DNA of 18,539 nt from Thermodesulfobacteriota bacterium (lineage in GTDB: Bacteria; Thermosulfidibacterota; Thermosulfidibacteria; Thermosulfidibacterales; B14-G1): contig JAJSAC010000061.1 in NCBI GenBank assembly GCA_024274915.1, positions 1 through 18,539 on the forward strand, read 5' to 3'. This document shows, one piece after another, positions 53-18,539 of this stretch. Each line of letters starts with the position of its first letter. Position 1 is the first letter of the stretch. The position numbers were made by a program, and so were the translations under genes. The notes under the pieces are model-generated. The model did no database searches. It saw only the letters and a program-made list of their open reading frames with translations, and was not told the DNA's origin.

Positions 53-129
53 CCCAGGTCCTCCATCACCTCCTCGGCCACCTTCTTATCACTGAAGGGG
101 TAAACCTCATCTCCTATGATCTGATAGTC

Positions 130-1488: not shown

Positions 1489-1493
1489 AGGAC

Positions 1494-2408: not shown

Positions 2409-2450
2409 GGGCTAATCTAATAAACCAAAACCGTCCCAGGAGCAAATGGT

Positions 2451-2852: not shown

Positions 2853-3288
2853 TGGTTTCTACATCCTGATTCTCCACATGGAGAAAGAGACCACCATCAC
2901 CATAGGCAAACTGGGGACCATCCCCTTTCCCCCTGGTACCTACTGCTATGTGGGCCGTGCTAAGACCTGCCTCAGACAGAGAATCGCCCGCCACTCCAGG
3001 AAAACCAAATCCCTAAGATGGCACATAGACCACCTCCTGCCCCACGTGGAGATACAATCCGTCTTCCTCCTTCCCCTCGACAGCGCTACGGAGTGTGCCC
3101 TGGCTCGGCACCTGACGGAAAAAGGGGGCACACCTTACCCCACGCGCTTCGGCGCATCCGACTGCCGCTGTCCGGGCCATCTGATCCATCTCCCAATCCA
3201 CCACTCCCATCAGATCCTCTCTAACCTTACTAAAGCAGCAATCCCTCCCAGGTTGACTGGCAACCCCCCAGGATATAAACAAAACTAA
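2833..3288 (+). CDS. DUF123 / GIY-YIG-like (Uri superfamily, COG1833-type) putative nuclease; GTG start overlapping the Nudix 3' end by 20 nt
   Basis: GFYILIL...TITIGKLG...PGTYCYVGRA...RIARH...LRWHIDHLL matches the DUF123 pattern (GxY..hh......hGKLG....GYYVYVGSA...R..RH....K..HWHIDYL) as recalled. The conserved N-terminal GFY is only included if the in-frame GTG at 2833 is used; the next ATG is at 2878. Confidence 0.6.
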   Translation: MPWAKNNGFYILILHMEKETTITIGKLGTIPFPPGTYCYVGRAKTCLRQRIARHSRKTKSLRWHIDHLLPHVEIQSVFLLPLDSATECALARHLTEKGGTPYPTRFGASDCRCPGHLIHLPIHHSHQILSNLTKAAIPPRLTGNPPGYKQN

Positions 3289-3330
3289 ATCTGATTTCGG
3301 AATGGCTAAAACCAAGGGAGGAGAGGAAAG

Positions 3331-4470
3331 GTGGATTTCAGCTTCAGCGAAAAGGAAGCGCTGCTCCGCAAATCCATTGCAGAGTTTGCCAAAAGGGAAA
3401 TCGCCCCCCTAGTGGATAAGATGGAGTCCCAGGGCGGCTTTGCCCCTGAAATCATCCCCCAGTTGGGGAAGATGGGCATCCTGGGTATCATTACCCCCCC
3501 TGAATACGGGGGCAACGGCATGGGTCATGTAGCCAAGACCATTGCCGTGGAGGAGATCTCCAAGGTCTGCCCCGGGGTAGGTCTCGTCCTGGAAGGCCAC
3601 TATGTCTGCACCTATCTCATCCAAACCTTCGGGTCCGAAGAACAGAAGAGAAATTACCTCCCCAGGCTCACCTCAGGCGAAACTCTGGGCTCCTTGGCCG
3701 TGACGGAACCCACCGGCGGCTCGGACGTGGCTGGCATCCAAACCATGGCCAAGAGAGAAGGTCGTCACTATACAGTTACGGGCAGGAAGTGCTTCATCTC
3801 CAACTCCCACGTGGCCACCGTCCATGCCACCCTGGCCCGAACAGGAGAAGGCCCCAAGGACTTCGCCGTCTTTATCGTAGAAAACTCCTTCCCCGGCTTC
3901 TCCCTGGGCCGCACGGAGAACAAGATGGGCCTTAGAAGCGCCACTACGGGAGAACTCATCCTGGAGAACTGCCAGGTCCCCATAGAAAACCTGGTGGGCA
4001 GAGAGGGAGACGGAGTGAAACAGGTCTTGGCCACCATCAACCAGGCGGCCAGGCCCACCATGGCCGCCGTAGCAGTGGGCATTTGTTATGCTTCCCTGGA
4101 GGAGGCTGCCAGATTTGCCAGGGAAAGGGTCCTCTACGGCAAACCCATTTCCAATCTCCAAGCTATCCAGTTCCTCCTAGCCGATATCTTTGCCCAAGCC
4201 GAAGCAGCCAGGCTCCTCACTTATCGGGCCGCCAGCCTCTTGGACCAAGGGCAGCCCTCGGACATAGAAGCCACTATGGCCAAGTATGTGGCCTGCGAAG
4301 CCGCCTTCCAATGCGCCCGTTGGGCGGCTGACATCCATGGAGGATACAGTGTGATCAAGGAGTTCGCCATAGAACGCCTACTCCGAGACGCCTGGGTCAC
4401 CATTCCCAGCTCAGGCACAGCCCAGGTGGCTAAAGTGGTGCTGGGTAGGCACGCCGCCAAGAACTTTTAA
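3331..4470 (+). CDS. Acyl-CoA dehydrogenase family protein (short/medium-chain-like, 379 aa), GTG start
   Basis: N-terminal MDFSFSEKEALLRKSIAEFAKREIAPL, middle and C-terminal ACAD domains. Strong Shine-Dalgarno AAGGGAGGAGAGGAAAG directly upstream of the GTG. The C-terminal YEGT catalytic motif is replaced (see findings). Confidence 0.85.
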   Translation: MDFSFSEKEALLRKSIAEFAKREIAPLVDKMESQGGFAPEIIPQLGKMGILGIITPPEYGGNGMGHVAKTIAVEEISKVCPGVGLVLEGHYVCTYLIQTFGSEEQKRNYLPRLTSGETLGSLAVTEPTGGSDVAGIQTMAKREGRHYTVTGRKCFISNSHVATVHATLARTGEGPKDFAVFIVENSFPGFSLGRTENKMGLRSATTGELILENCQVPIENLVGREGDGVKQVLATINQAARPTMAAVAVGICYASLEEAARFARERVLYGKPISNLQAIQFLLADIFAQAEAARLLTYRAASLLDQGQPSDIEATMAKYVACEAAFQCARWAADIHGGYSVIKEFAIERLLRDAWVTIPSSGTAQVAKVVLGRHAAKNF

Positions 4471-4475
4471 ACTGT

Positions 4476-4507
4476 GGCCAAAAAGGCCAGGCCTTATTAG
4501 CCTGGCC
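4476..4507. terminator. GC-rich hairpin between convergent genes (tggcc-aaaaa-ggcca nested with ggccaggc-cttatta-gcctggcc). On the minus strand it is followed by TTTTT, so it is a likely intrinsic terminator for the amidohydrolase gene and possibly bidirectional.
   Basis: Inverted repeats read directly: 8-bp stem with 7-nt loop, and a T5 tract on the minus-strand side. Confidence 0.4.
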
Positions 4508-4519
4508 CTTGGTAATACT

Positions 4520-5341
4520 CTAACCCAGCTCCAAGAACCTGACAGGATTATCCGAAAGGACCTTCTCCACCACCTCCGATTTCAGACCTTTGTGGGCCCG
4601 GAGTTCAGTGATGATACGCTTCCTGCTCACCAGGGGATAATCAGAACCAAAAAGAACCTTATCCTTCAAAGGCCCGTTTATGTACTTAATGAGAAGATCA
4701 GGGTAGTGCTTAGGAGCCCACCCAGCGATGTTGAGATAGAGGTTCTCGTGGCGCATGGCCAAAGCGATGGCATCCCCTACCCATGGCCAGCCGAAATGGG
4801 CGGCCACGATCTTAAGATTGGGAAAATCCACGGCCACATCGTCAAGGTCCAAGGGATGACAGTAGCGCAAACGGGTTCGGTCATGGTACTGGGTGCCCGT
4901 GTGAAAAAGGACGGGAATACCCAAATCCTGGGCTAACTCGTAGATGGGGTAAAAGAGAGGATCGTTGGTCCTCAGCTCGTTCAGGTGGGGAATGAACTTG
5001 AGCCCCTTGAGGTCCAGCTCCTTGACAGCATACTCTAGCTCCTCCAGGGCCAGGACCCCTTTCCTGGGATCCACCCCAGCAAAGCCTATGAGCCGGTGGG
5101 GATACTTCTGGACGGCCTGAGCCACCAGCTCGTTTGGGGTCTTGAATCCAAAAGTGGTCTCGGCATCTACGGCCACAATAACGGCCTTATCCACTCCGGC
5201 CTCATCCATGTCCTCAATGGTGTCTTCAATGGTAGGGGTGAGGTGGTGGCCAAACATCTTCTGATAGTTCTCCAGCATGAAGTCGGGAAAAGTTGCCAGG
5301 GCCTCCTGGGTCCAAAGCTGGGAATGGGTATCCACAATCAT
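4520..5341 (-). CDS. Amidohydrolase-2 family (PF04909-like) TIM-barrel metal-dependent hydrolase/decarboxylase
   Basis: N-terminal IVDTHSQLW (metal-binding HxH region), AAHFGWPW and FGSDYP C-terminal motifs typical of amidohydrolase_2. GGGAGGAGAGG Shine-Dalgarno directly upstream of the ATG. Confidence 0.8.
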   Translation of the reverse strand: MIVDTHSQLWTQEALATFPDFMLENYQKMFGHHLTPTIEDTIEDMDEAGVDKAVIVAVDAETTFGFKTPNELVAQAVQKYPHRLIGFAGVDPRKGVLALEELEYAVKELDLKGLKFIPHLNELRTNDPLFYPIYELAQDLGIPVLFHTGTQYHDRTRLRYCHPLDLDDVAVDFPNLKIVAAHFGWPWVGDAIALAMRHENLYLNIAGWAPKHYPDLLIKYINGPLKDKVLFGSDYPLVSRKRIITELRAHKGLKSEVVEKVLSDNPVRFLELG

Positions 5342-5475
5342 CCTCTCCTCCCTTTTGGCGATACTGTAAAAGCTTTTGTGAGCCTACAACCTAAGAGGCC
5401 CTTTGTAAAGGAAGGGGAAGAAGCTTACAACCATGTAAGGTTGTAAATAGGCACTTCCTCATTTACTATCCCCCC

Positions 5476-6459
5476 ATGGTTCTCAAAGGCCTGGAAGAAG
5501 CCCTGGAAGAGTATTTGAAAAAGGAGATCTTTCCCCAGATGGCCCCCGGCCCCTATGGCCCCATAGAGATAAAGGTCTTGGCCTCAGAAAAACCTGTCTA
5601 TCTCTTCCGGGAAGAGACAGGAGGAATGGAAGTGGTGGGCAAGTTTTTCCAGTGGGGGAAAATAGATACCAACACAGCCACCAGGAGGATGGAGAGGGAG
5701 TACCGAAACCTTATGACTGTGTTGAAGCTGGGAATGGACGGGGGAGACTTCCGAGTCACCAAGGCCTATGGAAGAAATCCCGACTTGATGGCCGGGCTCT
5801 TCACGGAAAAGGCCATGGGTAAAGATCTAGACCACTATCTCGACAGGGCCATCACCAAAGGACAACAAAAGAGGCTCCACAAGAAGGTGAAGAGACTGGC
5901 CCAGTGGATGGCCTGTCTCCACGGCAGAAGCGAAAGGAAGATGGGAGCAAACTACCAACTGGCCCGAGAATATCTAGAAAAACTCCTCTCTTCCCTCTCC
6001 CTAGGAGAAGCCCTAAGCCGCAAACTGGAAACCTCCATCAGGAATCACGCCTCCCGGTGGTGGGCAAGTTCTCCTCCGAAAGACCAGGAAGTCCTGGTCC
6101 ACGGCGATGCCACCCCCACCAACTTCTTTTTCTTCGGAGACAGGGTGACAGCCATAGACCTGGAAAGGCTGAAAGAAGCCGATAGGTGCTGGGATCTTGG
6201 ATTTGCGGCGGCGGAGCTAAAACACTATCACCTTTGGAAGGGAGGCCATAAATGGCAAGCTGAACCGTTCGTTGAAGCCTTTCTCAAAACCTACTCCCAG
6301 ACCCTGGGGACACCCGGAACCTTCGAGAGGACCATCAGTAAACTACCCCTATACATGGCCTTGGGACTGCTACGCATAGCAAGAAACCCCTGGCTCCATC
6401 AGGAATACAGGGAGACCATAATACACGAGGCAAAGGAATGTCTAAAATACGGGCTGTGA
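5476..6459 (+). CDS. Phosphotransferase-family protein with an aminoglycoside-phosphotransferase/choline-kinase-like kinase fold
   Basis: Catalytic-loop/Brenner-type motif VLVHGDATPTNFFF followed by AIDLERL (the HGDxxxxN ... IDxE pattern of APH/ChoK-like kinases). No clear Shine-Dalgarno at 5476; the alternative ATG at 5539 has AAAAGGAGA upstream. Confidence 0.7.
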   Translation: MVLKGLEEALEEYLKKEIFPQMAPGPYGPIEIKVLASEKPVYLFREETGGMEVVGKFFQWGKIDTNTATRRMEREYRNLMTVLKLGMDGGDFRVTKAYGRNPDLMAGLFTEKAMGKDLDHYLDRAITKGQQKRLHKKVKRLAQWMACLHGRSERKMGANYQLAREYLEKLLSSLSLGEALSRKLETSIRNHASRWWASSPPKDQEVLVHGDATPTNFFFFGDRVTAIDLERLKEADRCWDLGFAAAELKHYHLWKGGHKWQAEPFVEAFLKTYSQTLGTPGTFERTISKLPLYMALGLLRIARNPWLHQEYRETIIHEAKECLKYGL

Positions 6460-7151
6460 TTTTCGACCTTTACGGTACTTTGGTAGATATCCTCACCAAC
6501 GAAGGGAAAGACGAGATTTATAAGATCCTGGCCCTTTACCTCCAGTATTACGGGGCCAAGGTGACAGGCGATCAGCTCAGGGGCTCTTTGGGGCTGGAGA
6601 TGGATCGGATGAAGAAATCCGACAAGGAGCGCTACCCCGAAGTGGATCTGGAAGAGGTCTTTTCCCGGGTGCTCCACAAGGAGGGTCTGGACCATCCCTT
6701 TATGGTAGAATCCTGCTGTAAGTTATTCAGGCTCCTGAGTCGGGAAAGGTTCCAGCTCTTTCCAGAAACCCTCACCATCCTCAGGGAGCTGAAACGGGGA
6801 GGATACCCTTTGGCCCTCCTCTCCGACGCACAGAAAGTCTTTTCCATAGAAGAGATGAAAATGCTGGGCTTGGACGGGTTTTTCGACTATGTTCTCATGT
6901 CCACCCAGTTTGGTTTTAAAAAACCCGATCCCCGCCTTTTTGCCATGGCCTGTGCCCTCCTGGGGGTGAAGCCCGAGGAGTGTGTCTACGTGGGGGACAG
7001 CCCCAAAAGGGATGTGAAAGGGGCCCTGGAGACGGGCATGACGGTGGTTTTAGTGAGGTCCACAGAGGATAAGCTGCCCAGAGAACAACAGCCCCATCAC
7101 AAGGCCAGGGACCTGAAGGACTTCTGGATGTGGCTTAAGGAAAAGGGTTGA
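6438..7151 (+). CDS. HAD-superfamily hydrolase (subfamily IA-like)
   Basis: Motif I FDLYGTLVD (DxDGT), C-terminal VGDSPKRDV (motif IV, GDxxxD). Overlaps the upstream kinase by 22 nt; AAAGGAA Shine-Dalgarno. Confidence 0.8.
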   Translation: MSKIRAVIFDLYGTLVDILTNEGKDEIYKILALYLQYYGAKVTGDQLRGSLGLEMDRMKKSDKERYPEVDLEEVFSRVLHKEGLDHPFMVESCCKLFRLLSRERFQLFPETLTILRELKRGGYPLALLSDAQKVFSIEEMKMLGLDGFFDYVLMSTQFGFKKPDPRLFAMACALLGVKPEECVYVGDSPKRDVKGALETGMTVVLVRSTEDKLPREQQPHHKARDLKDFWMWLKEKG

Positions 7152-7174
7152 AGCCCACTTCACCAGGATTTGGA

Positions 7175-8065
7175 TCAGTCCTCCAAGAGTACCTCTTTCA
7201 ACCTCTGGGCTATCTCCAGGGCTTGGTGGAAGGGCCTCTGCCAGATATTTCGACCAAAAATGAACCCCGTAGCTCCCGCCTCAACACAGAGTCGGGCCCT
7301 TCTAAGAAGCTCTTCATCGTCCACTCTACCACCACCGGCAATGATGACCGGGATCTTCCCTGCCGCCATCACCACCCTCTTCATGGCCTCTTCCAGGCCG
7401 ATCTCTTTCACTAGATCGTCGTAAGGAGAGGGTAACTCATGGGCCCTTTCCCTGTCCAAAATGGGAATGTTCACCTTCACCATGTCAGCCCCCAGCTCTA
7501 AAGCCACTCTGGCAGCATATTCAACAGCGTACAGGCTGTTCCTACCCCCCTTGGCCTCTATATCCCTACCCCGGGGATAAGCCCAAACAATGACGGGCAT
7601 ACCTAGCCGCTCCGCTTCCCGCCTCACCTCACAGAACTGGGCAAAGTCCCTGTCCTGGGAGGGAGAACCCACATAAAGGGTGTAACCCACGGCATCTGCC
7701 CCCAGGCGCACAGCGTCTTCCACGGTGGCCGTCAATGAGGAAAAGGCCTCTTCATCCGAAGGAACACTGGTCTTGCCATTGATCTTGAGAATGAGGGGCA
7801 CCAAACCAGCATAGTCTCTCATGTACTTCATGGCCAAACCGGGCTGAAAAACGATTCCGGAAAATCCTCCTTCCACCGCCACCTTAAGCTGGAACTCGGG
7901 ATCGGCGCTCTCAGGGTTGGCAAAGAAGTCCCTGGGACCATGTTCCAATCCCTGGTCTATGGGAAGAAACAAGGCCTTACCATTGCCCGGTCCGTGAAGA
8001 TACAACAGACGATAAAGCCTGGTCTTTTTACCAGCGCTTCCCGTTATCTCATCCAAAAAACCCAT
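7175..8065 (-). CDS. Class I (Schiff-base, DhnA/FbaB archaeal-type) fructose-bisphosphate aldolase family protein. The related ADH-synthase subfamily is not excluded.
   Basis: 296-aa TIM-barrel protein with the family-typical LILKINGKT and VKVNIPI segments, as recalled. Translationally coupled to the upstream PfkB kinase: the Shine-Dalgarno AAGGAGGTG lies inside the kinase's last codons. Confidence 0.55.
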
Positions 8066-8066
8066 T

Positions 8067-9014
8067 TCACACCTCCTTTACCACCGCCTCCGCCAGGAGA
8101 CGCTGAAAGTCATCTGCCCTGAGAAGCTCAGTACCAGGGGTCATGGCCGTAGCAGAACCTGCAGCCAACCCCCACCTGAAGGCCTCTTCAAAGCCCTTGC
8201 CCTGAAGCAAGGCCAGGAGAAAAGCCGCCAAAAAGGAATCACCCGCCCCCACTGCACTCACGGTCTTTACTTCGGGTGGAATGCCCAGATACACCTTCCC
8301 ACCAGCAACCAGGACAGCGTTCTTTTTGCCTCGGGTGACGGCCACCACCTCCACCCCCATGTCCACCACCTCTCTTGCAGCTTTTATGATCTCTTCGTCC
8401 CCGGCATTCCTCAACTCTCTCCCCACCAAGCGCTCCAGTTCGTAGGTGTTGGGCTTGATCATGTAGGGCCCAGCCTTCACCCCGTGTTTCAGGGCCTCGC
8501 CATCGGTGTCCAATACAGGCCTTATCCCCCTATCCCTGGCCTCTTCTATGAGATCCCTGTACACCGTTCGGGTGAGCCCTGGGGGAATGGACCCGGCAAA
8601 AACCATAAACTGGGCTGCGCAATACAATCCTCCCATCTTCCACAACCTCGTTCTAAGCCTATCCAGATCCTCCACCTTCACCCGGGGGCCATCAGCATTG
8701 ATCCTGGTCTGGGTACCCGTCTCAAGCTCACTGATGATGACGTTTATCCGGGTATCCCCTTCGATGGCTATAAAGGAAGTGAGAATCCCTTCCTCAGCCA
8801 AAAGGACGCTGAGGGCTCCTCCTTCATGCCCCCCTATAAACCCGTAAGCGATGGTGGCTCCACCCAAGGTGTTCACCACCCTGGAAACGTTGATCCCCTT
8901 CCCTCCCGGATCTTTACGCATACCCTTCATACGGATGACGTCATCCACCACCAGCTTATCCACCGATACCGTTAGGTCTAGAGAAGGATTGAGGGTAACT
9001 GTAGCTATCACCAT
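8067..9014 (-). CDS. PfkB-family carbohydrate kinase (1-phosphofructokinase / 6-phosphofructokinase-II / tagatose-6-P kinase group); start re-called to the second ATG
   Basis: N-terminal [10 protein letters not shown], PfkB signature 1 region GGKGINVS, signature 2 [11 protein letters not shown]. The second ATG (9014) has CACTGGAGGGGC as its Shine-Dalgarno; the first ATG has none. Confidence 0.8.
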
Positions 9015-9081
9015 GCCCCTCCAGTGCATTTTTTGAAAAACCTAAATGGGAATATAGAAAGCCGAGATAAGAGCATCAACC

Positions 9082-9750
9082 TCAAGCCAATAGAACAGCG
9101 ATGATTCCCGTGAGGAAGATACCGTCGAAGGTGCCTGCCCCCCCAATGGAAGCCACAGGTGCCCCTACTTCTCTGATCTTTTTGAGATTCATGATATCCG
9201 CCCCAATGAGTGTCCCCAGGGTTCCCGATACATAAGCCACAGGAGCAGACATATGGGGAGCCAACAGAAGGGCTACCAAAGCTGCCAAAATAGGGGGAAC
9301 GAAAAGGGGCACCACAATGCCCACACCCCTCACAGGCTTGGAGAGGCGATAGGTCACCAGGGAAACCACGGCCACCCCCAATAGGGGCTGCCACGCCAAG
9401 CCCATTCTGCTCCACAAATGGAGGGACAAAAGAACAGGAATGATGGCGCCGCCGAGATTCACCGCCAGCACCGTCTCCCTCCTCCTGGGCACCTTCACCC
9501 TATACGGCATCCCCCAGACCGAGAAGACCACCATATCCTCTTCTATGGGCTTACCCTCCAACCGAGCAATGGGAATATTGACAAAGCTCCCCGCGAGGGA
9601 GAGAAAAAGGAGGAAAAAGAGTTGCTGAGGAGGTATACCCAGCTTTTGAAAAGCAATGGTAAAGATACCCAGCTGAACCAGTATAAAGAGGAAGGTCAGG
9701 ACAAAGATGAAAAAGATGAAATAGACCAACATCAAAGGCAAAAAGAACAT
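9082..9750 (-). CDS. Polytopic integral membrane protein, DUF1614-like (function unknown)
   Basis: About 6 hydrophobic helices. The conserved-looking NLGGAIIPVLLS segment is recalled as DUF1614-like with moderate certainty. The ORF-track start is a TTG; the ATG at 9750 has GGAGGTGG 4-5 nt upstream. Confidence 0.6.
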   Translation of the reverse strand: MFFLPLMLVYFIFFIFVLTFLFILVQLGIFTIAFQKLGIPPQQLFFLLFLSLAGSFVNIPIARLEGKPIEEDMVVFSVWGMPYRVKVPRRRETVLAVNLGGAIIPVLLSLHLWSRMGLAWQPLLGVAVVSLVTYRLSKPVRGVGIVVPLFVPPILAALVALLLAPHMSAPVAYVSGTLGTLIGADIMNLKKIREVGAPVASIGGAGTFDGIFLTGIIAVLLA

Positions 9751-9821
9751 GACCACCTCCAATTGTCAAAGTAACCGAGCTTACCCCCTTTGTAAAGGAA
9801 TGGCTCCAAAGAACCCTCACC

Positions 9822-9856
9822 AGAAAAACGGAAGGCCCCTCTCTTTGAGAGGGGCC
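9822..9856 (-). terminator. Intrinsic terminator downstream of the cytochrome operon (minus strand): stem ggcccctctc/gagaggggcc, 3-4-nt loop, followed by TTCCGTTTTTCT
   Basis: 10-bp perfect GC-rich stem read from the sequence, with a T-rich tail on the minus strand immediately 3' of the hairpin, 23 nt after the cytochrome stop. Confidence 0.55.
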
Positions 9857-9878
9857 AAAAGCAAGGGGGAAGAGAGGG

Positions 9879-11930
9879 TCAAGAGGATGGACCTCCCTTC
9901 TTTTTCAGCAACTCCTCGATGGCGTCCAACTCTTTAGAAGCCTCATCGAAGAGGTCTTGGGCATAGCTGACATTATGGATAGGGGCCAAACCCCGAAGAA
10001 CCTTTTTGATCTTGAGGGCCTTGGAATAGTGGACCCTCACCTTGGCTTCGTCCTTGGGCCCGAGCCTTATCACCTCCAAGGTCCTTGTCACTTTCGCTAT
10101 CCTGGCCTTGATTTTATCAGACAGATCCCTGACCTGATCCTTCCACTCATCCAACGCCTCACCATAGCTCTCGTCACCGTCGTGGCAATCGATACAGGTC
10201 TGTCTCACCTCCCTGTAAGAGACCTTGACGGACTGGGTCACATCGTGGCAGTCGACACAACCCACATCCTCTTCCACCATAGGATTGGGTTCGCCCCTGG
10301 ACAGTCCTCTGATGGCACCATGGTAAAAGGCCTTCTCCAAAGAGTGGCACCTGACACACCGACGAGTGGCATCCTTCATCTGGTGGTGACACTTGAGGCA
10401 GTCCTCCCGTTCGAGAAGGGTTTCCCCATGCCTATCCACGGAGTGACACTTCATACAGGGGATCTTCTCCTTTTCGGAGTGAAGCTTATGGGGAAAGACG
10501 AGCTTCTGCTGGAAGTAGACATCCTCAGGCATACCCAGACGCCTGTGGCACATGGTGGCACAATAGCCATCGGGGGTTGCGATAATGGCTGGCCTAGCTG
10601 GAATATAAGACCCCTGGGCCTTGTCCACCTTGTCCAAATTGTCCACAGCGATTCTCAAGAGCTTGACAGCGTATTCCACATTGTGAACCCCATGCCCAGC
10701 AGCCACAAGTCTGTAATCGTAGGTAGCCTCACTCAACAACCGGGCGAGATCCCCTTTTAGCCTCCCCTTGGCCCGGGAAGACCTTCTGAGTCTCTGACCC
10801 ACGTACTTCTCCAAACGACCCAGGTACTTATCCCAGTCTCTAAGCAAGAGGTCATACCCCTCCTCATGGCAATGGACACAGGAGGCAGGCGACGAGACCC
10901 TGGTCACTTCACCCCTAAAGCCCTTGGGATTGGGAAGACCCCTAATATGACAACCGTCACAGGTGACCTGGGCAGCAAACATCCTGCTGGGCAAATCCCC
11001 CAAGCCCTTACCACCTACACCCATGTACAACGCCTTCTGGGCACTGTGGAAGCGAGTGTGACAGTCACTGCACTTCACGAGGAAAGTCTTGACCAGCCTG
11101 ACATCTCCATGCTTGATCTTGGTGTGACAAACAAAACAGTCAATACCTTGCTTGCTCACATGAATGTCATGGGTCACCTTGGGATCCCTGGGCTTCTTTC
11201 TCATAACATGACAGGTGTGACACTTTTCATGGGGAACAGAGCCATCGCCCTCCACTATCTCCACGTGACACTGATCACAGCTCACCCCCAACTTCAGATA
11301 CTCCTGGTGGCGGAACTTGAACCCGTGATACTGGATCACCTTGGTGGGTGGACCATGGCAGGAGGGGCAACCAGTCACCGACTGTCCCTTGCCAGCACCC
11401 ATGAAGTGACAGGTAAAACAGACCGTTTCTTCAACACTTATATGCATCCCCTGAACAATGTGGGAATGGCAACTGGAGCACCTCAACTTTACGCCTCTAA
11501 GGGGCCCACTGAGATGTTGACTATGATTAAAGACAGGCCTATCCTTGACCACCAATTTCTCCGTAAAAAGCTCCTCTTTACGGTGACAACCCGATTGGAG
11601 ACAGGTAGTAGTGGTCACGTTCGCCCTGGGATACATATCATAAACTCCCAGGTTATACTTGATCACTGTAAGGAACATTTTTAGAGGTATCCCAGGGTGA
11701 CATTTGTAGCACGAAACCGCGTTGTGGGTAGAAGTCTTCCAGTGCTTATAATATGGCTTCTCATAATGGCAGGACAGGCAGAACTCTGGATTCTTGGACC
11801 TAATGTACAGATAAAAATAAGAGACAATACTAAATATAATCAGCAGTCCTATAGCCAGCGTTAAGAAATCTTTTCTCCTACTCCGTCTCAGCCTCCTGCT
11901 ATTCCTCTCTCTCTCTCTCAAACCCTTCAC
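9879..11930 (-). CDS. Membrane-anchored multihaem c-type cytochrome (683 aa). It has 16 canonical CXXCH motifs plus one CX3CH and one CX4CH. An N-terminal NapC/NirT/NrfH-like signal-anchor module is fused to a long multihaem extension. GTG start overlaps the upstream b-cytochrome stop (GTGA).
   Basis: CXXCH motifs were counted directly: CLSCH, CYKCH, CSSCH, CFTCH, CPSCH, CDQCH, CHTCH, CFVCH, CSDCH, CDGCH, CVHCH, CMKCH, CLKCH, CVRCH, CVDCH and CIDCH. The two variants are CLQSGCH and CATMCH. The N-terminus is RRLRRSRRK followed by a hydrophobic helix, then CLSCH...[11 protein letters not shown], which is NapC/NrfH-like. Confidence 0.85.
11905..11919. repeat. Dinucleotide microsatellite (CT)7.5 on the plus strand, (GA)7.5 in the coding sense, inside codons 4-9 (RERERN) of the 16-haem cytochrome gene
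   Basis: ctctctctctctctc read directly. A repeat of more than 7 units is unusual in an otherwise repeat-poor coding region. Confidence 0.9.
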
Positions 11931-12871
11931 TTCTCCATCCCCCCTTCCTTCTTCATCTCCTTTCTCAGAATCTCCACGTACTCCAGAGGATGTTCCTCAA
12001 CCAACTCGTCTTCCGATATTTTCCCCGTGAAGATAACAGGGTTCATAGGAAACTTGGAGGGATTTAGATGGGCATTGTAAAAATGCCAGCACACTATGGC
12101 CAATGTGGCCAGAAGGGCCTCGTCGCTGTGGGCCACATGGGCTATATCCGACACATACTTCGGGAGTATTCTTAAGAAGATATTAGGGAACCAGAGTATG
12201 AGACCGGAACATATCATGATCACACATCCCCAGTAGACAGCCCAGTAGTCAAACTTCTCCACGTAGCTGAAGCGATCGAACTTAGGTTTCTCCTTTGTCT
12301 TACCCAGATAGTATTTGATCATTTGAACCGCGTCCATGGCATCTTTGGGAGTGGGAATGAGCTTTTTAAAGTTGTAACGGCCCTCTTTTGTGAAGATGAT
12401 GTAAAATAAATGGAAGAGAGAAACAAAGATCAGGCCTGTAGCTCCCATCCTATGAAGGGTCCTGCTGGCCTCTATGCCTCCCAATAGAGCCAAAAGCTTG
12501 CCAGATATGCCCACATTGTGGAACTTCAGAGGCATACCGGTTATAATAAGAACAATAACACTGATGGCCATAATAGCGTGTTGGATGCGAACCGAGAGGC
12601 TGAACCTCTCAAAGTACCTTACTTCCCGCTTTTTCTCAGCTTTTATGAGCCTCCTGATCTCTTTCAGAACTACCGATTCCACCTCCCTTTCAATCTGAAC
12701 CAGCTTGTCTTCCACCACCACATCAAAGGCCACAAATGCGATATTTTCTATCTCTTCTAAAATCTTCTCCCTTTGCTCTTCATCCCAGGAAGCTATTTCG
12801 TCTTTGATAACCTCATAAACCCTCTCCTTCACCGACTCAGTCAGCTTCTCTCGAATCTCCTGGGCCGCCAT
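11927..12871 (-). CDS. Di-haem b-type membrane cytochrome, HyaC/FdnI/PhsC-like (Ni/Fe-hydrogenase b-type cytochrome family, PF01292-like), with an 85-aa charged N-terminal cytoplasmic extension
   Basis: Core [11 protein letters not shown]...(TM1), RTLHRMG..FHLFY (TM2), [29 protein letters not shown]. Four helices with conserved His pairs. It is a paralog of the 13917-14600 and 16792-17418 genes. The ATG at 12871 shares one nucleotide with the upstream cytochrome c stop (TAATG). Confidence 0.85.
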
Positions 12872-13920
12872 TACCCCATGCCCTCCTTCTTCTCTTTGGT
12901 CTTTCTATAGAAATCCAAGAATATGTGGATAAAAATCACCCCCATGGTACCTGCGGTAAGAATGATAAAGAACTTGGCTACGTAATAGACAACCCCTGAA
13001 CTTTTGCTGTGCATATCCAAATGCATCTTCCCTTTGGCAAAGTTCTCGTTGGCCCCCGGATGACACTTGCCACAGGTTTTGGGAAGATTGGCCTTGTTCA
13101 CCGTGGACAAAGGATCGCTAGGAGCCCGGATGTTGTGAATCCCATGGCAACTAGAGCAGTTGGCAGCCCTCATCTCCCCAAATTCCAAGGCGATGCCGTG
13201 GAAACTCTCTTTATAGGTCTTGGCGGGGTCCAAAGAGACCTTAAACCGCCTCATCAGAGCCTGATCAGCATGGCACCTGGTACAGGTTTCAGGGACCTTC
13301 TGAGGGCTGACACTGGAGTAGGGCTTTCCTGGAGAGTACACGTCGTGCTTTCCGTGACAGTCTACACAGGCAGGGACAGCCATAACCCCCTTCTTCAGCA
13401 GTGCAACCCCGTGGACAGAGTTCTTATACTCCTGGTACGGCTTCCTGTGACACCTACCGCAGGTGGCAGGAACCTTCTTTTTGTTCACGGTGGAACGAGG
13501 GTTACTAGGCGAAAACACGCCGTGTCCCCCGTGACAATCCTGGCACCACGGCGCCCTAGGATCACCCGCCTTCACCTTTCCACCGTGAACACTGCCCCAA
13601 TATTTTTTATAAATAGAGTCAGGTTGGGGAATATTCTTTGGGGCTCCCTGGTAATGACATCGATCACAGTGAACCCTGCCTATCTTGAGCCCTTTATGGG
13701 GAATGACGGTGACATCAATGTGGCAGTCCTGACACTTGAGTCTCCTATGAACAGAGGCCCTCAAAAGTTTCCTGTCCACGTAGACCGAAACCTCGGCCCC
13801 AGAAGGAAGAACCTTTTTTAGCTCTGGCTTTTGGTGACAGATTATACATTTCCTTATAGCCCCTTCCCCAGAAAGGGGTACAAAAAAAAGAACGAGAAAG
13901 AAAACCAAAGCCCGCTTCAC
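12871..13920 (-). CDS. Nonahaem c-type cytochrome (about 349 aa) with a cleavable signal peptide, three tandem paired-CXXCH repeat units and a C-terminal transmembrane anchor; GTG start overlapping the upstream b-cytochrome stop (GTGA)
   Basis: Nine CXXCH motifs: CIICH, CQDCH, CDRCH, CQDCH, CGRCH, CVDCH, CTRCH, CSSCH and CGKCH. Signal peptide [21 protein letters not shown] after a GTG with GGAGGGGGAG Shine-Dalgarno. The ORF-track N-terminus (MVDRKDQ...) runs through the upstream gene and is rejected. The C-terminus [26 protein letters not shown] is followed by RKTKEKK. Three repeats of C.DCHG.H.V.SP..P.S.V....VP.TCG.CH fit the doubled-CXXCH domain (PF09699-like). Confidence 0.85.
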
Positions 13921-14600
13921 TTCTCCCCCTCCCCACCGAAGAGTTTCTCGTACTCTAGAGGATGCTCCTTTTCCAAACGCTCCACACTGATCTTTCCGGT
14001 CAACCATACGGGATCCATAGGGAAGTTCTCTCTGAGATGCATGTCATAAAGATGCCAAACCACAATCACCGTAAAGACAAGCAAGGCTTCATAACTGTGA
14101 AAGACATAAACAAAATCCAAAATCCCCTTGGAGAGAACCGCCACACTTTTGTTATGAAACCAAAGCATAATACCCGAGATCTCCATGCTCACCACCCCAC
14201 CCACCACCAACCAGTACTGGAACTTTTGGCGGTAGTTAAAGCGGCCAAAACGAGGCTTCTGCTGAGAGGCACCAAGGGTATAAGAAAGAGAAAGCTTAAA
14301 GTCCCTCCAGTCTTTCATGTTGGGTAGAAGCTCCAAAAACTGCTCGTGCCCTCTCCTGGTGAAGAGGACATAAAAAAAGTGGTACAAGGATACCACCAGA
14401 AGCAGCACCGCCCCTATCCTATGGATGGTCCCCCTCGCTTGGAAGCCACCCTCCAGCTCAATAAAAAACCGCCCCCAGGAAGTATCAGCGTACTTAAGGG
14501 CGAACCCAGAAACCAAAAGGAGCACCACGGCAATGAAAAGGATAAAGTGCTGGATCCTCTCGTTAAGGGTAAACCTCTCTACATAAAGCGGATCTGCCAT
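13917..14600 (-). CDS. Di-haem b-type membrane cytochrome, HyaC/FdnI/PhsC-like (paralog 2, 227 aa, no N-terminal extension)
   Basis: [12 protein letters not shown] (TM1), [63 protein letters not shown]. These are collinear with the 11927-12871 protein. GGAGG is 8 nt upstream of the ATG. Confidence 0.85.
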
Positions 14601-14620
14601 CGCCTAACCTCCCCCTCTCT

Positions 14621-15412
14621 CTATTCGCCTTTGTCGGTCACCTTAGGGATCTCCTTCAGAAACGGCGTGAGTAGATCAAGGGGAATAGGGAAGATCAAGG
14701 TGGACGTGCTCTCAGAAGAGATCTCCATAAGGGTTTGGAGAAAACGGAGCTGAAGGGCCGCCGGGTGCTTGCCGATAATCTCGGCAGCCGATGCCAGGGT
14801 TTGGGCGGCCTGGTATTCTCCCTCGGCACTGATGATCTTGGCCCGCCTCTCCCTCTCAGCCTCAGCCTGACGGGCCATGGCCCTCTGCATTTCATGAGGC
14901 AGATCTATGTGCTTCAACTCCACCGTACTCACCTTAATCCCCCAAGGTTCCGTGTGCTCGTCCAGGATCCTCTGGAGCTCGGCATTGATGCGCTCCCTTT
15001 CCGAAAGGAGCTCGTCCAGTTCATGGTACCCCAGAACACTTCTCAAAGTGGTCTGGGCCAACTGAGAGGTGGCCGACATAAAGTCCTCCACCTCTATTAC
15101 GGCCTTGTCCGGGGCCACCACCCTAAAATAGACCACCGCATTGACCTTGATGGAGACGTTGTCCTTGGTGATGACGTCCTGGGGAGTCACATCCATAACT
15201 ACTGTTCTAAGGCTCACCTTGATCATACGATCTATCAGGGGGAGCAGGATGATAATACCCGGACCTTTAGTGGCCACGTACCTGCCCAGGCGAAAGATCA
15301 CCCCCCGCTCGTACTCCTTCAACACCCTGATGGTAGAGGAGAGGATGACAACCAAGATGACAAATATTATGAAGTAGGCGAATAAGTTCACAAAAGCTTT
15401 ATACAATACCAT
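14621..15412 (-). CDS. SPFH/band-7 (stomatin/slipin-like) membrane protein; start re-called to an ATG with a GGAGGT Shine-Dalgarno (the ORF-track start is a TTG)
   Basis: N-terminal transmembrane helix [14 protein letters not shown] followed by the SPFH core [18 protein letters not shown]...[27 protein letters not shown] and a C-terminal coiled coil rich in A/E/R ([24 protein letters not shown]). Confidence 0.85.
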
Positions 15413-15685
15413 TACCTTTACCTCCTGATCCGGTTTTTTATCCAATCCCCATTTTATTCAGCCGTTATATTTACAATGATAGATAAGTTTGCTATGTTTA
15501 CTCTTCTTTCTCTAAAAGCGGAGTACCAAGTCATCCACCTCAAACACTCAGTATAAAGACGTTAACGGACCATACCACCAGGGGAAATTGATGTCAACGG
15601 CGGCTACAGAGGCCCTTGACAGGGAAACGGAGACTATGTTACCGGCGGCACAAAGACGAACAAATCCCCACTGGAGGTTTTGCTG
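15413..15685. promoter_or_regulatory. Divergent intergenic region (273 nt) that should carry promoters for the SPFH-b-c-b-c operon (minus strand) and the c7-b pair (plus strand). AT-rich core at 15451-15515; TTGACA at 15616-15621; direct repeat GTYAACGG at 15561-15568 and 15592-15599; TTGATGTCAA at 15588-15597.
   Basis: Base composition and motifs read directly. No convincing -35/-10 pair with 17-nt spacing could be fixed by eye. Confidence 0.35.
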
Positions 15686-16795
15686 ATGAAGGGACAGAGA
15701 TGGAAATGGCTCTTCGTGGCTTTCATGTCCCTATCCTTTCTCCTCGTCCTCCCGCTCCACTTGCAAGCCATAGAAAACAGCGAATGTTTAGATTGCCACG
15801 GCGACCCCGACATGGTGAAAGAGTTACCCAGCGGAAAAACCATTTCCCTGTATGTGAATCCCAAGAAATTTGAAGCCTCTGTCCACGGCCAAAACGAGAT
15901 AGCCTGCACCGACTGCCACTCAGACATTACCGAACTGAACTACGACCAAGAGGTGCCCCACCCTGTCCCCGTAGCCTTCGTCAACTGTACTGATTGCCAT
16001 GATGAAGAAGGCACAGCCTACGAAGAGAGCGTCCACGCAGCAGCCAGGGTAAAAGGGGTTAAAGGAGCTCCCATCTGTTACAACTGCCACGACTTTCACT
16101 ACACCAAATACCTTTACGGCGACACCGTGGTGCAACTGGAAAACAAATTCTGCCTGAGATGCCACAACCCCAACAAGTACCACAAATGGCTGCCCCAAAA
16201 GAAAACCCACTTCGAGTATGTCATGTGTGCTGTATGCCACGCCCCAGACGTGGGAAGGCACATAAACCTGAGGCTTTATGACCTGATGTCAGAGAAGTTC
16301 CTCACCGGCGAGGAGATCGTCCAGAAGCTTGGGGTCACCTTTGATAATTTCATGGACAAGATGGACCTCAACAAAGACGGTGTACTGGATACAAAAGAAT
16401 TCCACCGGTTGGTAAGGGAGCTAAGAATAAACAAGGTGAGGGCCATCTTCTGGGGAGAAATGACAGACAACCTGAAACCCGAAGTCCACAAGGTTACCAA
16501 GGGAAGGGCTATCAAAAAGTGCGAAACCTGCCACTCTATCAAGTCCCCCTTTTTTGATAAGGTCTACCTCATCTTCACACATCCCACGGGAAAGGCCGAG
16601 CACTACCCCCTGAAGAGAAAGGTGCTCCAATCCTTCTACGTCACCCATTTCTACGCCATTGATGCCACCAGGGTAAAACTTCTAGACGTCATTGGTCTCC
16701 TCATAGTCCTGGGCGGAGTAGCCTTCGCCGGAGGCCACCTGACCCTCAGGATCCTTACCATACCCTTAAGGAGAAGAAGGAGGGAAGGGAGATGA
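15686..16795 (+). CDS. Heptahaem c-type cytochrome (370 aa) with signal peptide, an internal canonical EF-hand loop and a C-terminal transmembrane anchor; ATG start re-called (the ORF-track start at 15680 is TTG)
   Basis: Seven CXXCH motifs: CLDCH, CTDCH, CTDCH, CYNCH, CLRCH, CAVCH and CETCH. Signal peptide [33 protein letters not shown] is 7 nt upstream of the ATG. The C-terminus [26 protein letters not shown] is followed by RRRRREGR. The N-terminal module [34 protein letters not shown]....CTDCH is paralogous to the N-terminus of the nonahaem protein. Confidence 0.85.
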
Positions 16796-17418
16796 AACGC
16801 ATATACCTGCATCCCATACCCGTCAGGATCTGGCACTGGCTCCATGCCTTTGGCATAGCCTTCCTGGTCCTGAGTGGTATCCAGATCCGCTTCGCCGACT
16901 ACATCCTGGTGGTCCCCCTTAAAAAGGCCGTGGAACTTCACAACTTGGTGGGACTTATCGTGGCCGTAGATTATCTCCTGTGGTTCACCTTTTATGTGTT
17001 CACTGGAAGAATAAGAACCTACTTCCCCACGGCAGAGGAACTGATACTGGGAAGCATGCGCCAGGCCGTATATTACGGCTATGGCATCTTCAGGGGTGAC
17101 CCAAGCCCCTTCCACCCCACCCCGGAAAACAAGTTCAATCCCATGCAGAAGATGGCTTACCTCTTTATAATGCTCTTCTTCATCCCCATCCAGATCCTTA
17201 CAGGCTTCCTCCTATGGAACATCAAAGGCTACAGGGAAATTATCGATTTTATGGGAGGGGTCAAGATTGTGGACACCATCCACGTCCTTTTATTCTTCTT
17301 CTTCTTCGCCTTTATTATCGCCCATGCCTATCTGGCCACCCTGGGTCACACCCCCTGGGCCCATTTCAAAGCCATGATCACAGGGTGGGAAGAAGAGCCC
17401 GAAGAAGAACACTCGTAG
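16792..17418 (+). CDS. Di-haem b-type membrane cytochrome, HyaC/PhsC-like (paralog 3, 208 aa), ATGA-coupled to the heptahaem cytochrome
   Basis: [14 protein letters not shown] (TM1 with His), [44 protein letters not shown]. Four helices with His ligand candidates. Acidic C-terminal tail. Confidence 0.8.
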
Positions 17419-17436
17419 CCTCAACCTTTGACCTAG

Positions 17437-17472
17437 CTGGAAGAGGGGAGCCGGGGAACCCCCCTCTTCCAG
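17437..17472. terminator. Perfect 12-bp GC-rich inverted repeat (ctggaagagggg / cccctcttccag) with a 12-nt loop between the convergent b-cytochrome and protease genes; candidate bidirectional terminator
   Basis: Read directly. There is no strong T tract on either side, so termination efficiency is uncertain. Confidence 0.45.
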
Positions 17473-17482
17473 TCCTCACCCT

Positions 17483-18337
17483 TCATTTGCTGGCGTTGGC
17501 CTCTTTGCCCGTCTCCTTATAAGGTACGGGAATATACTGGACAGAGGGCCTGGCCTGGGTGGGCTGGTCGTAGAGGTCCATAAGGGTGTAAACCTCAGAG
17601 GGTATTTCTGTGCTTACCTTCAACCCAAGGGCCTCCAAGTCCTCTTTGAAGAGGGGATAATCGTGGGTCCATCTTCCCTGGGAAAGCTCCTCGGCCACCT
17701 CTTCTGCTTTCCCTTGATCCATACCCTTCTCTATGAGAATCTGGGCAACTTTCTTTCTCACCTGTTGAAGGGCTTTTTCGGAAACATCAGCCATGATAAG
17801 GGTTTTATCCTCCACCTTATCCAAAGGCTTCTCTCTCACTGCCTTCACGATGGACGCCGCCGGAAAACCTCCCAACTGGGGATCTACAGGACCCAGGACG
17901 GCATTGGGATCCATAATGATCTCATCAGCCGCCAGGGCAATGAAAGTACCACCAGACATGGCAAAGTGGGGCACAATCACCGTCACCTTCCCCTTGTGCC
18001 TCACCAGAGCGGTGGCAATCTGTTCGGCAGCCAAAACCAGGCCTCCAGGGGTGTGGATAATGAGGTCAATGGGCATATCATCAGGGGTCAGCCTGACGGC
18101 CCTCAGAACCCTCTCCGAGTCCTCTATGTTGATGTACTTCATGAAGGGGATGCCCAAAAAGGAAAAACCCTCCTGGCGGTGGATCATGGTTATGACCCTG
18201 GAATTTCTCCTCTCTTCAATCTTCCGGATCGTCTTGAGTCGTGCTGCCTCCAACATGCGCTGCCTCATCCAAGGACTGAAGGAAAGCAAAATGAGTAGCA
18301 ACCAGAAAATATCGAAAAAACTGGGGCTATAGTGCAT
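17483..18337 (-). CDS. Membrane-anchored Clp-fold serine protease of the SDH/S49 (SppA/NfeD-like) type, 284 aa
   Basis: N-terminal transmembrane helix FFDIFWLLLILLSFSPW. ClpP/crotonase-fold core IDLIIHTPGGLVLAAEQIATALVRHKGKVTVIVPHFAMSGGTFIALAADEIIMDPNAVLGPVDP (the nucleophile Ser sits in AMSGG). The length and motif pattern fit the 'SDH family Clp fold serine proteinase' group as recalled. GAGGAGG Shine-Dalgarno upstream of the ATG. Confidence 0.7.
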   Translation of the reverse strand: MHYSPSFFDIFWLLLILLSFSPWMRQRMLEAARLKTIRKIEERRNSRVITMIHRQEGFSFLGIPFMKYINIEDSERVLRAVRLTPDDMPIDLIIHTPGGLVLAAEQIATALVRHKGKVTVIVPHFAMSGGTFIALAADEIIMDPNAVLGPVDPQLGGFPAASIVKAVREKPLDKVEDKTLIMADVSEKALQQVRKKVAQILIEKGMDQGKAEEVAEELSQGRWTHDYPLFKEDLEALGLKVSTEIPSEVYTLMDLYDQPTQARPSVQYIPVPYKETGKEANASK

Positions 18338-18539
18338 GATGTCTACCTCCTCGGAATTTTTTATTAAAGCTAGGTGTCCGCGACTGGAGCGTCAATCCCA
18401 GGACTTCCCCCAGTTTTCGGGGTATTAGGGAAGGAAGTCTAATAAAGTCAGTGCATTTCCCCGTCTAGTAAGTGTAACACACTGAGATTAGCTTTGTTCT
18501 CGTCAAAATGGGGATACTTTTTGTAGCTTTAAAAAGGAA

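Follow-up and report, generated by a model that had tools for sequence, protein, structure and literature searches.

An 18-haem cytochrome c with a NapC/NirT/NrfH-like anchor, a candidate subunit of a quinone-linked inner-membrane cytochrome b/c complex

The subject of the present study is a gene for an 18-haem cytochrome c, termed MHC18, and the cytochrome operon in which it lies. The window, i.e. the whole stretch of DNA analysed, comprises 18,539 nucleotides (positions 1 to 18,539 of the forward strand of contig JAJSAC010000061.1, NCBI GenBank assembly GCA_024274915.1) and comes from a Thermodesulfobacteriota bacterium. An initial annotation, made from the sequence alone, had proposed a giant multihaem cytochrome c at 9879–11930; the ORF (open reading frame) does exist at this position, but on the minus strand, and the motif coordinates given with it, in plus-strand numbering, proved to be exact. 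The gene and its parts, with residue numbers in amino acids (aa), are as follows.

9879..11930, minus strand: MHC18, 18-haem cytochrome c gene (ORF call, motif scan and homologues)
11796..11930, minus strand: basic cytoplasmic tail and single transmembrane (TM) helix, aa 1–45 (hydropathy and model)
11451..11795, minus strand: NapC/NirT/NrfH-like core with haems 1–4 (C51, C74, C110 and C151), aa 46–160 (profiles and bridging)
11583..11603, minus strand: CX4CH haem site 3, CLQSGCH, aa 110–116 (motif scan and alignment)
11355..11534, minus strand: cytochrome c7-like trihaem unit, aa 133–192 (best PF14522 stretch, 133–192)
10599..11312, minus strand: OcwA/NrfA-superfamily-like module with haems 7–12, aa 207–444 (phmmer and profile search)
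10617..10856, minus strand: first helical bundle, aa 359–438 (alignment and model)
9882..10574, minus strand: C-terminal six-haem module, aa 453–683 (hhalign)
10545..10562, minus strand: CX3CH haem site 13, CATMCH, aa 457–462 (motif scan and alignment)
9897..10172, minus strand: second helical bundle with invariant H652-N653, aa 587–678 (alignment, model and hhalign)

The MHC18 gene starts with GTG and encodes 683 aa, with a computed mass of 77.7 kDa for the apoprotein and approx. 88.8 kDa with 18 haems, and a computed pI of 9.2. Motif scanning identified 16 CXXCH motifs, one CX4CH motif and one CX3CH motif, and all 36 of the 36 cysteine residues fall inside these 18 motifs, whereas 0.12 CXXCH motifs would be expected by chance from the composition of the protein. 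Six of the motifs lie within the first 200 aa and 12 beyond; the count of 12 had been given correctly from the start, but not the claim that all of these are CXXCH, as the set consists of 11 CXXCH motifs and the CX3CH motif.

A protein database search with MHC18 returned 265 homologues, mostly of 650–700 aa, and the 103 full-length sequences that were aligned are the source of all per-site counts given here. Sixteen of the MHC18 sites are CXXCH in 102–103 of the 103 homologues. At site 3 the motif is CX4CH in 64 sequences and CXXCH in 39, and at site 13 it is CX3CH in 83 and CXXCH in 20, with the CXXCH alternatives occupying identical alignment columns. Since relatives carry CXXCH at the same columns, both odd motifs are true haem sites, as had been suggested from the sequence, and the recurrence of CX4CH in 64/103 and of CX3CH in 83/103 sequences, again with CXXCH as the alternative, excludes sequencing error, the check proposed for the variant spacings, as well as chance as their origin. 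Both spacings are listed among the known minor haem motifs (PMC11492766). On this comparative evidence MHC18 is a real 18-site multihaem cytochrome c, and the original description of a giant multihaem protein is borne out by 18 sites conserved across the family. The two variant sites are also related in position. Internal repeat unit 1 opens with the CX4CH haem, which occupies the haem-3 position of NapC/NirT, and the duplicated C-terminal module opens with the CX3CH haem; these two haems align with one another when aa 453–591 and aa 106–247 are compared by hhalign, and so are paralogous 'first haems' of a repeated unit. The alternation of CX3CH and CX4CH with CXXCH among relatives provides a clean natural experiment on haem motifs.

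The N-terminus of MHC18 has the features of a membrane anchor. Eleven of residues 1–21 are lysine or arginine, the hydrophobic helix spans aa 20–45 by hydropathy and aa 2–44 in an AlphaFold2 model, and C51 of haem 1 lies six residues past the end of the TM helix, so that the predicted topology is N-in, C-out; some relatives carry a cytoplasmic receiver domain ahead of the same TM helix. The order CLSCH...HWKTSTH...CYKCH, following a basic tail and one hydrophobic helix, is as first described. When the N-terminal 200 aa were compared with NapC/NirT/NrfH profiles, the check that had been proposed for this region, PF03264 (NapC/NirT) scored 26.1 bits against a cut-off of 24.1. This is a marginal and partial pass, as the match spans aa 23–103 and profile positions 10–95 of 174 and thus covers haems 1–2 only. 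The N-terminal fragment alone scored 27.8 bits, and PF03264 was found at E≤0.01 in 15 of 19 diverse N-termini of the family. In addition, a profile of aa 20–200 of the MHC18 family gave as its best PDB match the NrfH of D. vulgaris (2J7A_C, E 4e-11), over the TM helix, haem 1, haem 2 and the next helix. The remaining haems of the core were assigned through the 12-haem paralogue P0244, which is 35% identical and colinear with MHC18 aa 45–445 and whose own PF03264 match covers profile positions 14–168 of 174; by transitivity, the haems at C51, C74, C110 and C151 would correspond to core haems 1–4 of NapC/NirT, with CX4CH as the motif of the third. The NapC/NrfH layout claimed initially therefore stands in kind, through PF03264 and 2J7A_C, but the direct match extends over haems 1–2 only and is carried on to haems 3–4 indirectly, through P0244. 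MHC18 is not a true NrfH orthologue: the NCBIfam NrfH equivalog TIGR03153 scored 30.9 bits, far short of its cut-off of 134.2, and no nrfA was found in the window.

The roles of the NrfH quinol-site residues are described in the ImcH preprint (10.1101/2023.05.03.539133), and the equivalent positions of MHC18, all within the NapC/NirT/NrfH-like core, are E57, K91 and D98, the last followed by M99. NrfH Lys82 aligns with K91 (lysine in 60 and arginine in 38 of the 103 sequences), NrfH Asp89 with D98 (asparagine in 49 and aspartate in 25) and NrfH Met49, in CXXCHxM, with position 57, which is methionine in 72, glutamate in 27 and isoleucine in four sequences. The window protein carries glutamate here. 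The switch from M57 to E57 is paired with one from P99 to M99, position 99 being methionine in 19/27 of the E57 sequences and in 0/72 of the M57 sequences; this coupling suggests compensation inside a functional pocket, and the haem-1 ligand or pocket methionine may have been relocated to another segment. In window coordinates, E57 is encoded at 11760–11762 and D98-M99 at 11634–11639.

Beyond the core, the trihaem unit has the cytochrome c7-like layout F-x-H136-x-x-H139 followed by haems at C151, C171 and C188. The long haem-bearing region that follows had been framed as a multihaem wire; it is not a c3-type string, and sequence comparison indicates that it is made of duplicated modules related to OcwA, NrfA and MccA, each ending in a three-helix bundle. 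A phmmer search with MHC18 detected the OcwA structure 6I5B (E 5e-12), and a profile of aa 196–450 matched OcwA at E 5e-24 over aa 223–442 and NrfA at approx. 1e-4 over its last two haems and helices. Comparison of sub-alignments by hhalign found aa 477–678 to be homologous to aa 250–442 (probability 99.95%, E 1e-37) and aa 453–591 to aa 106–247 (E 2e-14), which is the internal duplication. The AlphaFold2 model (mean pLDDT confidence 86.5, pTM score 0.68) places helical regions at aa 359–438 and 587–678; a Foldseek search with this model was uninformative. The first bundle closes with an invariant G-x-H416-N-V-E-Y, and an invariant G-x-H-N, also present in OcwA, terminates both helical regions (H416 and H652). 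MHC18 thus has both the shared haem-packing fold and the C-terminal three-helix bundle of the NrfA/ONR/MccA/OcwA/HAO proteins. In the OcwA/NrfA superfamily, oligomerization is mediated by the three C-terminal helices (PMC9250108). A further reading, which we judge improbable, is that the two homologous modules, each bearing a bundle, pair within one chain as a pseudo-dimer in imitation of the NrfA2 dimer.

The conserved residues that could ligate the haems were then counted. Fifteen non-motif histidine residues (69, 136, 139, 163, 208, 254, 257, 274, 295, 416, 481, 484, 501, 516 and 652) and two non-motif methionine residues (317 and 551) are conserved, with H295 and M317 invariant in the aligned family and Q298, Y302 and G304, near H295, invariant or nearly so. 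These 17 residues are exactly enough distal ligands for every haem except the NrfH-like haem 1. Haem 8 (C237HTCH) aligns with the penta-coordinate haem 5 of OcwA, H295 aligns with OcwA His380, and Ser296 aligns with OcwA His381, the non-bonding distal residue over that haem (PMC9250108). MHC18 contains no CXXCK motif and no cysteine outside the haem motifs.

The genes next to MHC18 encode further cytochromes, as listed below.

11927..12871, minus strand: FdnI/HydC-type dihaem cytochrome b, 314 aa (PF01292, 58 bits)
12871..14007, minus strand: 9-haem cytochrome c with signal-like N-terminus and C-terminal TM helix (domain and TM prediction)
13917..14600, minus strand: second FdnI-type cytochrome b, 227 aa, four TM helices (domain and TM prediction)
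14621..15445, minus strand: SPFH/HflK-like gene, 20 nt (nucleotides) upstream of the first cytochrome b (NCBIfam models)
15569..15597, minus strand: promoter-like TTGACA-17-TATGGT, 10/12 matches, with TG extension (consensus match only)
9834..9856, minus strand: terminator-like hairpin of 10 bp (8 GC) followed by a T-run, 23 nt past the MHC18 stop
15680–16795, plus strand: 7-haem cytochrome c with C-terminal TM helix, in a divergent pair (domain and TM prediction)
16792–17418, plus strand: PhsC-like cytochrome b, in the divergent pair (domain models)

The b cytochrome noted from the start as the neighbour of MHC18 was recovered at 11927–12871 with PF01292 at 58 bits, and the scores of the window's three cytochrome b genes for this family are 56–84 bits. 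The 314-aa protein keeps the haem ligands of FdnI, with H18, H57, H155 and H169 corresponding to H97, H140, H248 and H262, and its predicted TM segments start after aa 90. It also has a highly charged N-terminal extension of 85 aa (12617–12871, minus strand), which matches no Pfam family and would be cytoplasmic by analogy with FdnI topology. In relatives, the cytochromes b next to MHC18 are 313–348 aa long compared with 227–262 aa for the other cytochromes b, with an extension of similar length and divergent sequence. The successive genes are joined by overlapping junctions, GTGA between the 227-aa cytochrome b and the 9-haem gene, TAATG between the 9-haem gene and the 314-aa cytochrome b, and GTGA between the latter and MHC18, and a Shine–Dalgarno-like run lies ahead of each of the three. 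The longest 9-haem ORF shares 91 nt with the preceding cytochrome b gene (13918–14007); an alternative start, a GTG at codon 30 (13920) that follows GGAGGGGGAG, gives the GTGA overlap and a normal signal peptide, and is probably the true start. The hairpin and T-run behind MHC18 is probably the end of the operon, and the SPFH/HflK-like gene may be the first gene of the transcript.

To examine this arrangement in relatives, 86 fetched loci were surveyed by tblastn, with three duplicates counted once. Immediately upstream of the MHC18 homologue there is a cytochrome b in 80/80 assessable loci, preceded by a 9-haem-type cytochrome c in 76/76 loci and, before that, by a further cytochrome b in 67/72 loci; the same gene arrangement was seen in the gene tables of five relatives from different lineages. 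The initial annotation had considered the cytochrome b apparently redundant as a quinone site. Since it is found upstream in 80/80 loci, it is instead an obligate partner, with no redundancy in evolutionary terms, and in the window its stop codon overlaps the MHC18 start. Near the cassette, relatives also encode fused c–b proteins of 626–653 aa with a CbcL-like layout, and the Deferrimicrobia loci have extra b/c pairs in front of the cassette.

From the anatomy of the protein and the company that its gene keeps, MHC18 is most likely a subunit of a Cbc/ImcH-like menaquinol:periplasm electron-transfer complex, by analogy with the systems of that name. We propose, at a probability of roughly 0.55, that MHC18 is the terminal subunit, linked to quinone and facing the periplasm, of a b/c/b/c inner-membrane complex, with quinol being oxidized beside haem 1. 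In such a complex the NapC/NirT/NrfH-type module would hold the special haem 1 on the periplasmic (P) side of the membrane, beside the equivalents of the NrfH quinol site, Met/Glu57, Lys/Arg91 and Asp/Asn98. Menaquinol would be oxidized at this P-side site in an electroneutral step that releases protons to the periplasm, and the electrons would travel along the haem chain of the two OcwA/NrfA-like modules to periplasmic or extracellular acceptors, for which soluble cytochromes, metals and shuttles are candidates. The FdnI-type dihaem cytochrome b and the 9-haem cytochrome would provide a second, transmembrane route to or from an N-side quinone site, of the kind proposed for Geobacter CbcL and CbcBA (10.1101/2023.05.03.539133); the logic of P-side oxidation by NapC/NirT-type modules and of N-side oxidation by b-type modules is set out in the same preprint. 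One operon would in this way supply ImcH-like and Cbc-like entry points onto a shared network of 27 c-haems. Geobacter has separate systems, ImcH on the one hand and CbcL/CbcBA on the other, for high- and low-potential acceptors. As the two kinds of module differ in the side of proton exchange and in their interaction with the membrane potential, the NapC/NirT and b modules would not be redundant. A more far-reaching form of this proposal, in which all subunits are hard-wired into a single complex that contains three quinone sites (one NrfH-type on the P-side and two FdnI-type on the N-side) and 27 c and 4 b haems, is in our judgement improbable. If true, such a complex could switch between proton-releasing and potential-driven quinol oxidation according to the potential of the acceptor, and electrons from the P-side could pass via the b haems to the N-side quinone, i.e. 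a Q-cycle without a Rieske protein.

Several observations weigh against the proposal of a P-side quinol-oxidizing subunit. The direct NapC/NirT matches go no further than haem 2, and the NrfH equivalog cut-off is missed by a wide margin; Met57 is replaced by glutamate in the clade of the window protein, so that the chemistry of haem 1 may differ; and the ligand tally is a count and not a geometry, the AlphaFold2 model carrying no haems. In the alignment H295 falls on a histidine that adjoins the open haem pocket of OcwA, so that a second haem besides haem 1 may be open and one haem might bind a substrate instead of relaying electrons. Scans of the window revealed no outer-membrane conduit and no terminal reductase, no cytochrome b–MHC18 fusion protein, which would have proved a physical association, was found among the relatives, and no experimental study of the MHC18 family was found in the literature.

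A reading that shares the P-side anchor and gives it a lesser part is that the NapC/NirT-like N-terminus is a mere anchor and a relay that docks on the cytochrome b, with the b cytochromes as the sole quinone sites. The weak and partial NapC/NirT match fits this reading, as do the variation at position 57 (M 72, E 27, I 4), the arginine at position 91 in 38/103 sequences, the cytochrome b that is never missing (80/80 loci) and the overlapping stop and start codons, which suggest a fixed stoichiometry. We nevertheless regard it as doubtful, as positions 57, 91 and 98 are still limited to residues compatible with a quinol pocket, the coupled M57/E57 and P99/M99 switch (19/27 compared with 0/72) looks compensatory, and paralogues retain the full NapC/NirT domain. 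The conserved NrfH-type P-side site, known from quinol dehydrogenases, also speaks against running the same complex inward, from periplasmic donors to menaquinone via the FdnI-type cytochrome b in an energy-conserving redox loop, with a role like that of Hmc, Tmc or Qrc. Its donors could be reduced cytochromes (supplied by a hydrogenase or formate dehydrogenase), Fe(II), reduced humics or a syntrophic partner, but no hydrogenase, formate dehydrogenase or Fe(II)-oxidation gene lies beside the cluster in the window or the inspected loci, and the closest described analogues, ImcH and CbcL/CbcBA, run outward (10.1101/2023.05.03.539133). This inward direction is unlikely in our view, although several points favour it. 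In the setting where they are best known, FdnI-type cytochromes b act as quinone reductases; the models closest to the 314-aa cytochrome b, which keeps all four haem ligands, are those of the formate dehydrogenase gamma subunit and FdnI (1KQF_C); multihaem chains are reversible; and members of the family are also encoded in lineages that are not known for metal reduction, such as NC10/Methylomirabilis and Aquificota MAGs (metagenome-assembled genomes).

The likeness to catalytic cytochromes raises another alternative, that MHC18 is an enzyme comparable with an NrfH–NrfA-type fusion, in which one or two penta-coordinate haems of an OcwA-like module reduce a small substrate (a nitrogen or sulfur oxyanion, or a chelated metal) with electrons from quinol. 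The best fold and profile matches do belong to the catalytic NrfA/ONR/MccA/OcwA superfamily, haem 8 sits at the position of OcwA haem 5 with H295 at that of H380, and Q298, Y302 and G304 are near-invariant. MHC18 has no CXXCK, though, and no spare cysteine for an MccA-type copper site or a Tyr–Cys crosslink; the OcwA His381 position is a serine; the 17 conserved histidine and methionine residues suffice to six-co-ordinate all haems but haem 1; and in the duplicated module the H295 position is held by the histidine of an extra haem motif, suggesting a structural or relay role. An enzymatic function is accordingly among the less probable readings. The assignment as an outer-membrane terminal reductase is likewise unlikely, given the NapC/NirT-type inner-membrane anchor and the receiver domain that precedes the helix in relatives.

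Compared with known systems, the quinone-linked subunit proposed here combines familiar parts. With NrfH, NapC, NirT and CymA, MHC18 shares an N-in single TM helix with haem 1 right after it, CXXCH-x-M/E, the W-x-x-S-x-H signature, haem 2 and the helix with K91 and D98; it differs from them in having 18 haems compared with their four or five, a CX4CH motif at haem 3 and a locus without an NrfA, NapAB or TorA partner gene. Other NapC/NirT-type anchors that carry additional haems have been described before, e.g. ImcH and TorC. ImcH of Geobacter sulfurreducens (seven haems, three TM helices) resembles MHC18 in carrying on one chain a NapC/NirT-type quinol site and extra haems, through which electrons reach the periplasm. 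The ligation of haem 1 is unusual in ImcH as well (10.1101/2023.05.03.539133), a comparison made by description. MHC18, in contrast, has one TM helix instead of three and 18 haems instead of seven, contains OcwA-like modules and helical bundles, and is always paired with a cytochrome b. The neighbouring genes match the architecture of the Cbc systems, an FdnI/HydC-type dihaem cytochrome b with four TM helices and a multihaem cytochrome c with a single TM helix, and CbcL/CbcBA likewise join such a cytochrome b to a cytochrome c of nine or seven haems; in the window, the 9-haem and the 7-haem cytochrome c each have one TM helix, at the C-terminus. CbcL and CbcBA, set beside the operon by architecture, are not described with an NrfH-anchored 18-haem subunit. 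OcwA (6I5B) is a cell-surface nonahaem cytochrome of the Gram-positive Thermincola potens, whereas the related module of MHC18 is membrane-tethered, partly duplicated and placed behind a NapC/NirT core, and MHC18 lacks both the CXXCK of NrfA and OcwA His381. ActA, the pentahaem subunit of alternative complex III (6BTM, 6F0K, 6LOD and 8K9E), matches c7-like trihaem stretches at aa 250–294 and 455–543; this likeness is local only, and no actBCDEF genes are present. HmcA of Desulfovibrio, with 16 haems, is part of a redox complex of the membrane in which a b-type cytochrome is also found. It is thus similar to MHC18 in haem number and in this setting, but HmcA is a soluble periplasmic c3-like chain with iron–sulfur and NrfD-type partner genes, whereas MHC18 is TM-anchored. 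A soluble HmcA-like c3 chain is ruled out for MHC18 by the TM anchor, which stands in place of a cleaved signal peptide, by the absence of hmc partner genes, with no iron–sulfur or NrfD-type gene adjoining MHC18 in the window, and by the c3-family match, which is single and weak (36 bits, aa 204–291).

The individual parts, i.e. the NapC/NirT anchor, the OcwA/NrfA-like modules and the Cbc-like b/c pairs, are of known kinds; the 18-haem architecture, the internal duplication with its paralogous CX4CH and CX3CH first haems and the strictly conserved four-gene cassette appear to be undescribed. The quinol:periplasm modules set the energy yield of anaerobes that respire metals, electrodes and humic substances, and to our knowledge those studied are few (CymA, ImcH, CbcL and CbcBA), all from Proteobacteria or Desulfuromonadia. 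The MHC18 family is a good subject for those who study respiration or extracellular electron transfer, and overturns nothing by itself.

One relative of this locus has appeared in the literature. In Ca. Deferrimicrobium borealis, a predicted iron reducer, a 'cluster 1' of four multihaem cytochromes with 9–16 CxxCH motifs and two cytochromes b with four TM helices each was proposed as an Fe(III)-reduction complex, and its 16-CxxCH protein was guessed to be an outer-membrane reductase from 24% identity to MtrA (PMC9386147). As the gene content of locus L037, from the closest relative of that organism in our survey, is exactly that of 'cluster 1', the 16-CxxCH protein is very likely an MHC18 homologue, judging by gene content. 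The anatomy of MHC18 favours an inner-membrane, quinone-linked role for it over a place in the outer membrane.

The fusion of a quinol dehydrogenase anchor to a long haem wire had been thought unusual, but MHC18 relatives are numerous. A scan of GTDB species found 404 genomes that encode one, and a profile search of 1.84 billion cluster representatives returned 587 proteins at E≤1e-30 (clusters at 50% identity), whose lengths suggest 12-, 15-, 18- and 21-haem forms. The best 80 of the 404 loci, almost all from MAGs, come from Deferrimicrobia, Acidobacteriota (Holophagae and Thermoanaerobaculia), NC10/Methylomirabilis, Aquificota, Desulfobacterales, Latescibacterota, Zixibacteria, Calditrichota and Gemmatimonadota. 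Most of the hosts are anaerobes, and in the databases the relatives go by no more than 'hypothetical' or 'cytochrome c3 family'. The window protein has its nearest relative, at 79% identity, in an unclassified MAG. A cultured host is Thermoanaerobaculum aquaticum (WP_038047662.1, EG19_11805, 652 aa), so that ImcH-like and Cbc-like modules in one operon could offer a practical system for comparing P-side with N-side quinol oxidation.

Variant forms were also observed among the relatives. The NC10 form ends at approx. aa 515–517, after the 15th haem motif (L078, L082, L083 and L006), and NC10-type loci have a separate downstream cytochrome gene of approx. 685–733 aa that is also MHC18-like; judging from these sequences, the C-terminal module there may have separated from the rest or given way to another. 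The 12-haem paralogues (L003 12584–13864; L004 9244–11046; P0222, P0244 and P0293) have a full NapC/NirT domain and often lie near the cassette, beside Rieske/cytochrome b (bc-type) genes, and some of them (P0222) carry a response-regulator receiver domain before the TM helix, a sensor-like fusion. In P0203, P0253 and P0262 (1321–1441 aa) the MHC18-like region begins at approx. residue 870, and the N-terminal part has no Pfam match.

The other genes of the window were also examined. The 7-haem cytochrome of the divergent pair contains an EF-hand-like loop at aa 221–247 (EF-hand_1, E 1e-4, below the cut-off), which is unusual in such a protein. Beyond the divergent b/c pair lies a gene for an SDH-family Clp-fold serine protease (17483–18337, minus strand, 428 bits), which we take to resemble the NfeD partners of SPFH proteins; both cytochrome operons may thus be flanked by a possible stomatin/protease gene pair. 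Just past the operon terminator a DUF1614 membrane protein is encoded (9082–9762, minus strand, 206 bits), and the other neighbours are housekeeping genes, for a PfkB kinase, a DeoC/LacD-family aldolase, a HAD hydrolase, an acyl-CoA dehydrogenase, MraW and a Mur ligase.

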